Shown piece after piece: positions 53,157-64,000 of a stretch of DNA of 64,000 nucleotides. The stretch spans positions 3,264,001-3,328,000 of the forward strand of contig OZ251518.1 in the NCBI GenBank assembly GCA_965242965.1. The letters run 5' to 3'. The position numbers and the translations under genes were made by a program. The notes under the pieces are model-generated. The model worked only from the letters and a program-made list of their open reading frames with translations. It was not told the origin of the DNA and made no database searches. Every line of letters begins with the position of its first letter. Within the stretch, counting starts at the first letter, position 1. This stretch comes from Candidatus Poribacteria bacterium. Its GTDB lineage: Bacteria; Poribacteria; WGA-4E; WGA-3G.

Positions 53157-53322
53157 GAATTACCTCCGTAAGGATACAAAAAGCCTTGCTTTCCGTGAGA
53201 AGACAGGGGACGTGGCGGCGTTCATGCGGCGGTAGGTTTCCAAAATCGTAAAAATCGGAGTGCCTCTCGTGCGCGCTGCGGTTCCACTGCTCTCCCGCGA
53301 AAGCAGATATGTGAAACACGGT

Positions 53323-53515
53323 GCAGGCAGGTCTCCTGACTTCCGACTTTTTCCATTTCACCTTCCCATCCGAATGACAGTGGTTTTTGAAGTGGAAACT
53401 CTCGATTGAGAGAGGTATCGTTCACAGTGGCGGGGCCGTGGCGGATTTTCACCGCGCTTCCCTATTCTCCGATTCGCAGAGTTTGCAAGTTTCACTCTAC
53501 ATCGGCACCTGAACC
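53323..53515 (-). ncRNA. Cobalamin riboswitch
   Basis: Minus strand AGGTG...AATAGGGAAG.GCGGTGAAAATCCGC.ACGGCCCCGCCACTGT...CCACTG...GGGAAGG...AAGTCAGGAGACCTGCC. Confidence 0.95.
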
Positions 53516-53664
53516 GTTTGCTTATTTAATTGTTATGGATATATTATATCATATTCTTGTGCGTTTTGCAAATTTTTTTTGTTTCGTTGTCTGGAGCAGG
53601 ATTTTCAAGATTTTCTGGAGCAGGATTTTCAAGATTTTTCAAGATTTTCAGGATTAGGGTTATT

Positions 53665-53933: not shown

Positions 53934-55440
53934 CTATCCGCTCTCCCGCTGAAAATAGGTCTGCTCGCCGCCGTAGTGCCGTTCCGCCTTTGGACGTTCG
54001 CTGACCTGCCACGGCAAAGTCACCGAGATGGTGCCGTCCTGAAAATAGGCATCGGTTATCTGCCAAAACTGCAGGCGCGGGTAATGCCTCCCGTTATGCT
54101 CAAAGGTGCCTGCCGCTTCGGCGACGTTACGCATGCCGCGCGTCACGGGATGCAGGGTGATGAAAATGCCGATGACGGCATCGGTATCCTGCATCGCCGT
54201 GCGGAAGGCGCGCACCTGATTCGGGTTCAAACTCCTCCCCGATTTTACTTCGGCGATGACAGGCAGTTTCGTCTGCGTCGCCTCGGCGAGATGGTGATTT
54301 TCCCAGAGGACAACTTTCCCACTGCCGTCAAACCCGCCATCGTTGGTATTGGAAGTGGGCGAGAGGCCCAGACGAGTCACTGCCCAATTGGCGAAATCGT
54401 GTGGATTCTGCTCGGCGAGGAGGATGGCATCCTCCCATGTCCCCGGATATCCCTCAATGGTGTAATCTGCCTTTGGACGAAGCCCATGGCGTTCGCGCAG
54501 CCGACGCTCCATCGGTTCCAAAGCGAGAACGGTTAAATCGATACCTACCCAGTGCCGCCCGAGGCCGTGGGCGGCATCTAACGCTGTGCCGCAACCACAA
54601 AACGGATCGAACACGATGTCGCCGGGGTTCGTGGAGGCTTTGATGATGCGTTCCAAGAGCGCGAGCGGTTTCTGCGTCGGATAGCCGAGGCGTTCCTTGG
54701 ACGTTCTGCCGATGATATTAATGTCCCAGACATCGCGCATTGATGCCATCGTATACCAACGGCCATGCTCATCCTGATACTTCTCGATGCCTTTGAAACC
54801 CGGCGGCGCATTCGTTGAATACGAACGTTCCTTCTGCACATTGAAGGTATGCACATTCTTGGCTGACTTCGTATAGAACAGAATCACGTCGTGCTTGCGC
54901 GCAAACCAATTTTTGCTCACGCCGCCAGAACGGTAGGACCAGATGATTTCGTTTCGGAAGTGCGCCGCCCCGAAAATCGTATCCATTAACACCTTCAAAT
55001 AGTGGCTCGCATGCGGATCGCAGTGCAGATACACACTTCCATCCGGCGTTAGCAACCGCCAAATCTCGGCGAGGCGCGGTGCCATGAAGGCGAGGTAAGC
55101 GCGCATCGATTCGGCTTCGCTTTTTCCCTTATACCCTTTCGACCCCCCCCTTCAAAATTTGGTCAAAACCCGTTAAACAGTCTGACAAATTGGCCATAGT
55201 TTCAACGAGTTCGGGGTGCCGCCCATCGTAGTGAAGGACAGCGGCTTGATTTTCGCGCGCGGCATCGTCCCATCGCCAGATGTCGTCAAACGCTTTGCGG
55301 TGCGCTTTGGAGCCGGCGAAGAAGATGTTGTAGTTGCGGCCGCTGTTGTAAGGCGGATCGAGATAACAGGTGTGGTAGCGTGCGGTTTGCATCTCGCGCA
55401 TGACGTTGAGGTTATCGCCGAAATAGAGTGCGTTCTTCAT
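53934..55440 (-). pseudogene. DNA methyltransferase-Mrr-like fusion, frameshifted at G8 tract (55143-55150)
   Basis: MKNALYFGDNL...DPPY stops at 55129; other frame SKGYKGKSEAESMRAYL...[25 protein letters not shown]; G7 gives 501 aa. Confidence 0.88.
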
Positions 55441-55467
55441 TTTTTGATGCAATCTCTTTGCAATAAA

Positions 55468-55710
55468 CGATCGCGAGGGACAGGCCCTCGCGCTACGGGG
55501 GTGGAACGCCTTGATGAACGTTCGCGAGGGACAGGCCCTCGCGCTACGGTGAACGTAGACGTAGGGTGGGGGCCTGTCCCCCACCTTGCTCGGTTAACTT
55601 ATCAATGAACGTTCGCGAGGGACAGGCCCTCGCGCTACGGGGGTGGAACGCCTTGATGAACGTTCGCGAGGAACAGGCCCTCGCGCTATGGGGATGGAAC
55701 GCCATGATAA
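55468..55710. repeat. Tandem REP-like units CGCGAGGGACAGGCCCTCGCGCTAC
   Basis: Four near-identical units plus a variant; near-identical linkers. Confidence 0.85.
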
Positions 55711-61804: not shown

Positions 61805-62027
61805 GAGGTATGCTCCGATGTGTTGCGTTTTTTGTCATTATAGCAAATTTCGGGATGTAGGGCAACAATTTTTTTTATGGTGTTTCCGTTGCAATGGAAC
61901 GATCGCGGGGGACAGGCCCCCGCGCTACGGTAGGGTTGAAATCAACTCGCGGCTCCCGATCTCGGCAAAAACCAAAACGATACCGATGAAAAACCGAAAC
62001 GGCACTATTTTTTTTCTGACAAAAAAG

Positions 62028-62501
62028 TTGACAAAATTTGATAATGTGCGTATAATTAATAGCAGCATCGTCAATTTACTGCACGTTGTGTTAAAATTTC
62101 AAAAAATTTGGGGATTTTCTCATTTTTCTTTGATTTTAATTTGACAAATGTTGGAAAATCGTGTATAATTAACATATTGAGTGATGCCTATGCCATTTCC
62201 GGAGACGCGCCCGCTGCGCGAAATCTGGAAAATGGCTTGACAAAAATGTGAAAATTGGTTATCATTTAAGAAAACCACACATTTTTGCATTTTAATTTGA
62301 CATCGTTTGTCAATTGTGGTATAATTAACATATTGAATGATGCCTATGCCGTTTTTCTCAGCCTCGCCTACTTCGCGGGGTTTCAGAAAATAGCCTTGAC
62401 AACATTCTGCAAATCGGTTACCATCGTAGAAGTCATTTCACGGGACCATTTAGTTTTCGGTTCATAATAGACTTGACAAAAATGGTGAAATCGGTTATCA
62501 T
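62028..62501 (+). promoter_or_regulatory. Array of six tandem sigma70 promoters
   Basis: TTGACA at 62028, 62141, 62237, 62297, 62396, 62473, each 17 bp from TATAAT/TATAAT/TATCAT/TATAAT/TACCAT/TATCAT. Confidence 0.88.
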
Positions 62502-62507
62502 TTCGGA

Positions 62508-63410
62508 AATCGCTAGACTCGGTGCCGGGAGTGTTCCTTTACCACCGGCCCCACTGAATCTATCTGGACGCTATTACAAAGCGCGAAACGCTGCAAACGG
62601 GCAACGACGATAATGATGAATCAAACGCACTACGTTGACACCTCATCTGAAAATACGCGAGGACGAAGCACTTGGCACCTCCACACCCGGTGGGGGACGG
62701 CCGGCTTGCGTCTTGACGTGCCTGCGGTTGCAATGTCCATAGATCCGGCGAAGACCCCCCCTTATCTCATGACCCGTTAAGGGATACTGACTCTCTCATC
62801 GCCGCGAGTTGCGCGGAGACCACTCTCTTCACGCAGCGCGCAGATGGCAACATGAGCACCTTGGATTCCCACGTTGGGAAACACCCCAAGGTGCTAGATC
62901 TGTTGCACGGTAGTCACTTCATTTCTTCCCTCAAAACGCGACACCCCAGTTGCGGTTTCCCTGCTTGTGCTTTGCTTCGTTCCATTAAGAAGCATCGGCA
63001 GGTATCTTCCGGTATCCTCACTCCCTCCAATAAACATAGGCATTCTTGCGCCGAATTTTTTGTCGGCAGTTGTCTCTCTGACGCTGCGCCGATGCGGCCC
63101 CTTCCTGCCTATTCGCTGATGTTGGAAGATTTTAATCGAACCGATGGCGGGCAATTCGCCTGCTTACGGAATGCGGGCATCGGCCCGCTGTTTGCCTCAC
63201 GACGAGGCACCGAAGACACGAAAACCCGCGTGGGTTCAGTCGTGTCTCGCGCCCGCTGCAACGGTAGCGGGGTTTGAAAAAGATTTCCGAACGGACTCCG
63301 GTCTGTTTGGAATTGGTGGTATCTCATCAAAAACCCTCGGGTCGCTGATGAGGTGCTCAAAACTATAAAAGTGAAAGGTTTTTCGGTTGAAGAACTTTTC
63401 GCTAAAATTT
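62508..63410 (+). ncRNA. Putative large structured RNA / very long 5' leader
   Basis: Consecutive stem-loops with G-U pairs on the + strand; no credible ORF; directly downstream of promoter array. Confidence 0.55.
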
Positions 63411-63428
63411 AACAGATAGGAGGATAGA

Positions 63429-64000
63429 ATGAAAATGAAAGCATTTTCGATTCTATTGACGCTCGTGTGTATCGAGTTCGTCTTGATGCTTGCAGGGAAC
63501 ACCTCTGCGCAACAAGCGAAGATTGAGTTTACAGCGGAAACTGATGATGTCGTAGTGGAAGAAAGGCAGTATGAGATAGATGATAAGACAACGCTCACCA
63601 TTACCCTCAGACGCGGCGGTGCAGTGGTGCCGAACCAACCTGTCGAATTTCGGGTTCTTGGTTTTGTGGACCAGAACAATCGCTTCCTACCGCCGCCGGT
63701 TCCTGAGGCTGCTTCAGTCAGTCCAGAGAGGGGAGTCACCGACAATAACGGGCGGGTAACAACCACGGTGACTTTCCATAAGTCAGGACGCGTTGGAATC
63801 GAAGCAGAAGCACTTGATTCTCTCTACGTTCATGCTTTTCGGGTTAAGGCCGAACCGCCGCCACCGCCACCGCCTCCACCACCGCCACCGCCACCGCCGG
63901 AAATAACCCGCATTGTTGCGACTCCGAAGGTTGAGGGGGCCCTCGCTGTCGGCGATACCTTCACATACTCGATCGAGATTAAAAATGTGAAAGATTTAGC
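63429..64000 (+). CDS. Secreted surface protein, Ig-like domain + Pro15 linker + cohesin-like start (partial)
   Basis: AGGAGG RBS; signal peptide; TDNNGRVTTTVT; poly-Pro 63855-63899; VGDTFTYSIEIKNVKDL. Confidence 0.8.
   Translation, partial: MKMKAFSILLTLVCIEFVLMLAGNTSAQQAKIEFTAETDDVVVEERQYEIDDKTTLTITLRRGGAVVPNQPVEFRVLGFVDQNNRFLPPPVPEAASVSPERGVTDNNGRVTTTVTFHKSGRVGIEAEALDSLYVHAFRVKAEPPPPPPPPPPPPPPPEITRIVATPKVEGALAVGDTFTYSIEIKNVKDL

Follow-up and report, generated by a model that had tools for sequence, protein, structure and literature searches.

The window examined in this study is a 64,000-nt stretch of a 5.7-Mb genome, assembled in two contigs, of a member of Poribacteria, a phylum of uncultured sponge symbionts. 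Near the window end, the gene for a 554-aa protein (the target gene) starts at 63429 on the + strand and extends past position 64000; the predicted product has a hydrophobic N-terminus and Big_1-like, cohesin, dockerin, and FlgD_ig domains. Its ribosome-binding site, AGGAGG (63418–63423, + strand), was read from the sequence, and the anti-Shine–Dalgarno is present at the 16S rRNA 3' end. On the other side of the promoter region described below lies a divergently oriented MazG-family gene, and a REP element at ~61894–61935 contains 16-mers with up to ~2000 genome copies. An earlier reading made from the letters of the window (the sequence-only reading) had placed none of the genome's REP modules between the promoters and the target gene, and this holds, the 16-mers of 62510–63428 having at most three genome copies each.

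Elsewhere in the window, a cobalamin riboswitch (100 bits) was found at 53309–53527 on the − strand. On the same strand, a DNA-methyltransferase-like coding region (53934–55584) is divided between two ORFs, with a C8 run close by (G000:C1:3319143, window ~55143; G000 is the host genome), and this arrangement of the sequence makes the split region a likely in-gene phase-variable switch.

The promoter array

Six sigma70-type promoters of the form TTGACA-N17-TA(T/C)(A/C)AT were located on the + strand exactly where the sequence-only reading had put them, three of them matching the consensus at 12 of 12 positions: P1 (62028–62056, 12/12), P2 (62141–62169, 12/12), P3 (62237–62265, 11/12), P4 (62297–62325, 12/12 with TG), P5 (62396–62424, 10/12), and P6 (62473–62501, 11/12), the most downstream predicted start lying near 62508. 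The proposed duplication of ~156 bp, by which P4 duplicates P2 and P5 duplicates P3, was also recovered (62129–62265 against 62284–62424, 76% identity over 142 columns, period 156–159 nt). The promoter scan returned 13 promoter-like sites, compared with 3.3 in shuffles. A perfect consensus promoter by itself is ordinary in the host genome; the census of strict sites on contig C1 gave 226 in total, of which 211 were solitary, with three clusters of two, one of three, and a single cluster of six (62028–62501), which is therefore unique on this contig.

The array varies among related sequences. P1 carries one change in the −10 box in the congener G001 and has both boxes intact in the congener G002, where P2 has decayed. 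Between P5 and P6, a contig of the public sequencing run X5 has a 38-nt deletion (window 62423–62462), and G001 has an insertion of ~40 nt. As a separate observation, three near-identical consensus promoters spaced by 124 nt lie at G000:C1:3550490–3550738 (−), a few kb downstream of the 16S rRNA 3' end.

The leader, its reading frames, and its folded RNA

Downstream of the promoters, an upstream leader ORF of 55 aa (62613–62780, + strand) represents the present short (OFF) form. Its ribosome-binding site is weak (Shine–Dalgarno score 0, none good), contigs of the public runs X3, X4, and X5 have a 15-nt deletion immediately upstream of its start (62597–62611), and an equivalent start is found in homologues. 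The ORF crosses a run of seven C residues (C7, 62755–62761, + strand) and stops early at the family-wide motif GTTAA (62776–62780, + strand), 75 nt before the hairpin described below. With one extra C, the frame instead continues for 171 codons (62762–63277, + strand) across the hairpin; this stop-free read-through (ON) frame of 516 nt was reached in 0 of 2000 shuffles. The C run is therefore a candidate frame switch in which C8 would be the read-through length. As the ON frame ends 151 nt upstream of the target gene, translational coupling is not expected at this locus.

The sequence-only reading overlooked the C7 run, together with about 50 architecturally similar cassettes of the same genome, and its statement that the leader has no convincing ORF has to be revised, because ORF 62852–63277 is the 3' part of the longer frame that opens before the run. 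The sequence-only reading had named a conserved protein from this ORF as evidence that would speak against its proposal; this was borne out for the frame, which is kept open, and not for the peptide, which is hardly conserved (pN/pS 0.5–0.97). A conserved protein gene was rejected on this ground and because the ORF is frameshifted in G001 and deleted in G002, and neither it nor three homologous leader ORFs had a Pfam match.

Four public runs were compared as contigs of unrecorded library type, a comparison that is silent on expression. Contigs of X1, X3, and X4 span the tract as C7, and the C7 allele is thus not an assembly slip. A contig of X5 has one more C behind 62754 at a depth of 2165 of 13380 (among the indels listed, 12 of 19), which could come from another strain; three differences flanking this site are common to all depth.

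The hairpin (62855–62907, + strand) has a 10-bp outer stem, an inner stem, and a family tail ending in GTTGCA, and is proposed to act as a terminator or pause site. Its energy is about −23 kcal/mol, and its pair probability in context is 0.85–1.0. The nine nucleotides after the stem contain four U, the fewest among the 30 hairpin-bearing cassettes of the genome (the other 29 have five to seven), and this U-tail is able to pair back with 62847–62851; the terminator scan did not call the 62855–62895 hairpin. A Rho gene is present in the genome. The rut-site test on the window copy gave a best 78-nt C−G excess that was equalled by 39% of 192 background stretches, and although none of the 30 cassettes has a negative C-over-G skew (median 0.06 vs. 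−0.02), the window copy lies within background.

The hairpin sequence is conserved across four genera. Its strict pattern occurs in 10 of 112 family genomes with zero control matches, and its covariance model matched 19 of the 112 at E ≤ 0.05, 11 of them below 1e-10, nine of these being part of the model. Over all GTDB genomes, the pattern matched at least 119 stretches; among the 80 matches listed, three are Candidatus Poribacteria, and we take the other 77, from scattered taxa, as mostly chance.

Folding of the whole leader (62508–63431, 924 nt) gave z scores of −5.8 on the + strand and −1.9 on the − strand. All stems named by the sequence-only reading were recovered in the predicted fold, and their imperfect pairs, read directly from the sequence, are G–U on the + strand. 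A 3' structured module with short covarying stems (63130–63275, + strand) is common to homologues in genus g5, four of whose leaders align with it, and three G–U-containing stems past the ON stop (63285–63402, + strand) were seen only within the genus of the host. The module had 95% of 140 cells paired, compared with 28–53% in slid controls, and double changes in 8 of 20 pairs, a count reached by none of 500 shuffles, in a test biased in its favour because the structure was derived by RNAalifold from the same seven related sequences. Covariation in the main hairpin was not above shuffles (63 of 500 as high; nine sequences). Covarying structure in relatives was thus found for the 3' module and not for the hairpin, and on this comparative evidence the leader includes an RNA fold that has been conserved.

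BLAST searches with the 3' module in 112 family genomes returned only short matches outside the genus; among seven inspected, six were unrelated, and the one in G004 is a 24-nt match before a gene start. Within the host genome, a 60-nt copy of the module start lies between two genes at G000:C1:4243278–4243339 (−), and we take one neighbour of this copy to resemble a fragment of a lysozyme gene. That no known RNA family would be recognised in the region agrees with the Rfam scan, which gave nothing relevant at the gathering score or at E ≤ 10 (best E 3.1). RNase P and tmRNA were located elsewhere in the genome, and a 6S model run over the whole genome had no match.

Homologous leaders and the cassette family

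Matches at length were confined to two congeners among 60 relatives. G001 is 81% identical throughout and, like the host, has intact start codons, GTTAA, and hairpin; its long frame is shifted by one base near 63077. G002 is without ~62737–63111 (~375 nt), so that run, early stop, and hairpin are gone together, and retains the promoter array apart from the decayed P2, the 3' stems, and the gene. This deletion is as expected for what a locked-on allele would show.

A wider set of 12 leaders from four genera, which are not syntenic, comprised 10 hairpin-pattern matches together with those of G100 and G030. The order start, C run, early stop, hairpin, gene is common to 12 of 12, the leader start lying 106–152 nt upstream of the run and the gene about 240 to 670 nt from it. 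The run is C7 in one, C8 in six, and C9 in five; five leaders are in the read-through (ON) state and seven in the early-stopping (OFF) state. Two near twins, G072 (C8, OFF) and G083 (C9, ON), have four base differences in the 45 leader codons before the run. A stop-free frame from the run to past the hairpin is found in all 12, and the other + frames have several stops each, except for a second open frame in three g2 copies. The shuffle P for the longest frame was below 0.003 in six homologues and 0.02–0.07 in the other six, values that are not independent among kin.

Openness of the frame is accompanied by little constraint on its peptide: the long-frame pN/pS was 0.89, 0.97, 0.50, 0.76, 0.77, and 0.92 in six pairs, compared with 0.52, 0.31, 0.22, and 0.20 for the target gene in four pairs, and the leader peptide (0.41–0.85) is under mild constraint. 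The frame geometry, the variation in run length, and an open frame kept without peptide constraint are thus directly observed.

The homologue targets are co-oriented and have a hydrophobic, signal-peptide-like start wherever the gene is in view (the G109 locus ends just past the start codon); two were scanned for domains and proved to be an NPCBM protein and another Big_1/cohesin/dockerin protein. The Shine–Dalgarno of the leader ORF is strong in the g5 and g6 copies and in most paralogues and weak at the window locus. At one homologous locus (L082 in G072), the ribosome-binding region has a base change that abolishes a stop, and the long leader frame continues in frame into the NPCBM gene; such an arrangement is possibly a step between the leader-type and fusion-type cassettes described below.

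In the host genome, the number of C/G runs drops steeply from 8678 at length 5 to 588 at length 6, and then less steeply to 106 at length 7 and 78 at length 8. Position relative to promoters distinguishes the C runs, since 50 of 224 C≥7 runs lie 190–340 nt behind a promoter, compared with 6 of 224 G≥7 and 3 of 588 C6 runs, and the pattern C6+ N8–16 GTTAA had 58 genome matches, compared with 3 and 7 in two controls. A sequence rule identified 51 cassettes with run lengths of 6–12, among which 36 are one C short and end at the conserved stop, seven are in the other frame (the one at 906659 continues into a long gene), five are ON, and three were unassigned. The +1 C frame is an ORF of 430–2200 codons in 15 of the 51, and by sequence these fusion-type cassettes, built to the same architecture, correspond to ordinary contingency loci inside genes.

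Thirty of the 51 cassettes have a hairpin (−15.5 to −34.9 kcal/mol) and a tail ending in GTTGCA, which the +1 C frame crosses in 30 of 30 and the −1 C frame in 7, the shuffle expectation being 6.0; roughly half of the hairpin-bearing cassettes (about 15) form a single subfamily, and the paralogues are not independent. At the run, each leader ORF encodes two or three prolines. Translational coupling was considered as a general rule and rejected, as the distance between the ON stop and the following start codon varies from −194 to +476 nt and lies within −16 to +21 in 9 of 28, by rough gene calls.

Across the phylum, at least one motif match was found in 110 of 176 genomes, overlapping matches inflating the counts. 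A large excess over the control is confined to the family of the host (for example, 81 vs. 5 in G000, 93 vs. 5 in G009, and 65 vs. 2 in G090), and many of its members have none. MutS and MutL genes are present in the genome, which rules out mismatch-repair loss.

Related cassettes in relatives also stand ahead of defence-looking genes, as judged by translation. Cassettes with C run and hairpin precede genes without a signal peptide, likewise defence-looking by translation, at G000:C1:230172–230316 (−) (L112) and at L096, L097, L099, and L113; one family of such targets recurs in four genomes, and one cassette lies upstream of a DUF1156-like gene. Further C8–C10 runs lie at frame junctions of long ORFs on G000:C1, for example at 471799, 473397, 1749431, and 2324431 (+) and at 5144321, 3688175, and 1552920 (−). 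Several of these ORFs are methyltransferase-like by translation, which suggests many phase-variable restriction-modification genes in this genome.

One such gene resembles the leader itself. The DUF1156 methyltransferase gene at G000:C1:2063068–2065734 (−) (L034) has an in-frame C11 run near codon 58 and, from its sequence, is probably phase-variable; the copy in G001 (L031) has C9 and is apparently frameshifted, and a paralogue at C1:5204079 is without the run. About 130 nt downstream of the C11 run, 48 nt of the gene match the leader hairpin with 83% identity, strand and reading frame being the same; the ~50-nt stretch compared was chosen after the fact. Outside hairpin and run, no similarity was found (flanks z ≤ 2.3 in 12 of 12 homologues; peptide profile E 1.8), and a shared origin of the leader subfamily and the DUF1156 gene is possible, though unproven. 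We regard as unlikely, though worth stating, the broader scenario that this Poribacteria family turned a poly-C switch plus hairpin into a portable cassette placed ahead of surface and defence genes that number in the dozens and are unrelated to one another, so that each cell would carry its own combinatorial code of ON and OFF states, with the subfamily arising from the 5' end of a phase-variable DUF1156 gene.

The proposed switch and its alternatives

Based on this evidence, the region is probably a phase-variable, slipped-strand leader-ORF attenuator before a secreted cohesin/dockerin protein gene, similar in logic to pil1 and belonging to a portable poly-C cassette family. Six promoters, whose activity is predicted from their sequence, would feed one leader. 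Ribosomes would start at 62613, cross the C run, and, with C7, stop at GTTAA (62780) before the hairpin, leaving the hairpin and the untranslated RNA behind it exposed, so that most transcripts may end early by intrinsic termination, Rho, or both. Slipped-strand gain of one C would place the ribosome in the frame that is stop-free to 63277, through the hairpin, and transcription would then reach the gene. The frame geometry behind this step is observed; translation, termination, and switching at the locus are proposed by analogy with pil1. Under this model, openness of the frame would be what is conserved and the peptide itself would matter little, expression in the ON state would be very high owing to the stacked promoters, and, more speculatively, the 3' stems may help to protect or stabilise the final 150 nt, which stay untranslated. 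The suggestion of the sequence-only reading that the region acts as a giant regulatory leader of the surface-protein gene gains support from the absence of a terminator before 63429, the frame that is kept open, and the co-oriented genes that follow the homologues. Several observations count against the attenuator model: the weak Shine–Dalgarno and the 15-nt deletion upstream of the leader start, the poor U-tail and its possible back-pairing, hairpin covariation no higher than in shuffles, the rut-site result, the lack of translational coupling, the skewed distribution of cassette states, the presence of MutS and MutL, and a run of seven C, a short length for a hypermutable tract.

A different use of the same geometry would be a recoding rheostat, in which the DNA stays one C short and some ribosomes (by a −1 shift) or RNA polymerases (by an extra C) enter the long frame, giving a graded, non-heritable output. 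The excess of one-C-short cassettes (36 of the 48 assigned) would fit deletion from the ON state and also recoding, and C7 is the only listed form in three public runs at the window locus. However, in-frame alleles are the genome consensus in 5 of 12 homologues and in five cassettes of the host genome, run lengths span 6–12, and a conserved stimulatory stem 5–9 nt behind the run is not visible among the C runs of the genome. We consider recoding rather improbable.

It is less probable still that the switch has decayed, the leader ORF being poorly translated, the hairpin leaky, and the six promoters constitutive through a structured, stabilising 5' UTR. The weak Shine–Dalgarno, the deletion upstream of the start in three runs, the weak U-tail, the off-frame base in G001, and the loss of the switch in G002 would fit such decay, but start codons, GTTAA, and hairpin are intact in both the host and G001, the 516-nt open frame exceeds all shuffles, and a +1 C variant exists.

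We give a similarly small probability, if anything slightly smaller, to a signal-responsive attenuator, in which the C run would encode Pro-Pro and ribosome pausing, through EF-P or tRNA-Pro supply, would set leader folding, as with proline-rich leader peptides. The prolines at every run and the mild constraint on the leader peptide agree with this, and uORF-controlled Rho attenuators are well known, according to the part of the literature account consulted (PMC12360218). Pure-C codons, variable run length, the open long frame, and the 15 +1 C cassettes leading into giant genes would be left unexplained.

Very improbable is the other suggestion of the sequence-only reading, a stand-alone, highly expressed large ncRNA (or a leader whose 3' module is processed as a small RNA), because strand-biased folding, six promoters, and the double changes of the 3' module, scored on the sequences that gave its structure, stand against the lack of any 3' terminator before the gene in the scan, a middle of ~375 nt that is dispensable in G002, homologues that vary about threefold in length and adjoin a gene, the absence of an Rfam match, and RNase P and tmRNA lying elsewhere.

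Parallels and biological meaning

Large bacterial ncRNAs include OLE, GOLLD, ROOL, and HEARO, which the leader resembles in length, strand-biased folding, and strong promoters; it differs from them in having no Rfam match, no terminator of its own, a modular, dispensable middle, and a maintained open frame. Homopolymer contingency genes are known in Neisseria and Helicobacter.

Closer to the proposed attenuator is the pil1 locus of Streptococcus gallolyticus, in which, by genetic tests, changes in a GCAGA repeat extend the leader peptide so far that it reaches into a premature terminator, and transcription of the pilus genes rises (Danne et al. 2014, PMC3894217). As far as the consulted part of that report describes pil1 and pil3, both systems have a promoter, a leader ORF with a simple repeat, and a surface-structure target, and in both the low state stops before a stem-loop into which a change in repeat length extends the ORF; this geometry is seen here in all 12 homologues and in all 30 tail-bearing cassettes. 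Three of five features that define pil1 are found here, namely a leader ORF, a variable-length repeat, and a stop before versus passage through a stem-loop. The other two are a stem-loop that ends transcription prematurely, for which the window hairpin is a candidate, and frequent reversible switching with bimodal expression of the target, which the model would predict. The same part of the report gives 13–22 GCAGA units and two pilus loci, whereas here the repeat is a mononucleotide tract of C7–C9, usually only the +1 C frame reads through, and about 50 cassettes per genome precede unrelated genes. The window locus, known from its DNA, further differs in its six promoters, a 670-nt spacer with extra conserved stems, and a weak U-tail.

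The poly-G contingency genes of Campylobacter jejuni, as the portion of PMC11955535 drawn on here presents them, are similar in that a G/C run of 7–12 shifts the frame of surface-protein and DNA methyltransferase genes, and the 15 fusion-type cassettes fit this type directly. Unlike those genes, the window locus has its run in a separate upstream ORF with an unconserved product, and the target protein is untouched. The uORF-controlled Rho attenuators (tnaC, mgtL, and cruR) and the switches of Clostridioides difficile are similar, within the consulted part of PMC12360218, in that transcription goes on or ends depending on whether a leader ORF is translated, and Rho is present here; tnaC, mgtL, and cruR respond to a ligand and the C. 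difficile Rho switches to DNA inversion, whereas the window copy has no rut-like excess over background.

The literature searched, which included few subscription papers and no supplements, contained no description of phase variation, homopolymer or repeat switches, or cohesin/dockerin proteins in Poribacteria, nor of repeat-driven leader attenuation beyond the two pilus loci of one Streptococcus. To the cassette family, this locus adds a six-promoter stack, a subfamily that can be followed through four genera and includes both ON and OFF alleles, a case in which the switch has been deleted naturally, and a covarying 3' module.

A long, folded leader such as this one can readily be taken for a new large ncRNA. 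The arrangement proposed here would be the pil1 logic recast as a mononucleotide, multi-copy cassette before surface-protein and defence genes in an uncultured phylum. If this is true, the surface of the symbiont would vary largely from cell to cell, which would bear on its escape from host phagocytosis and from phages.
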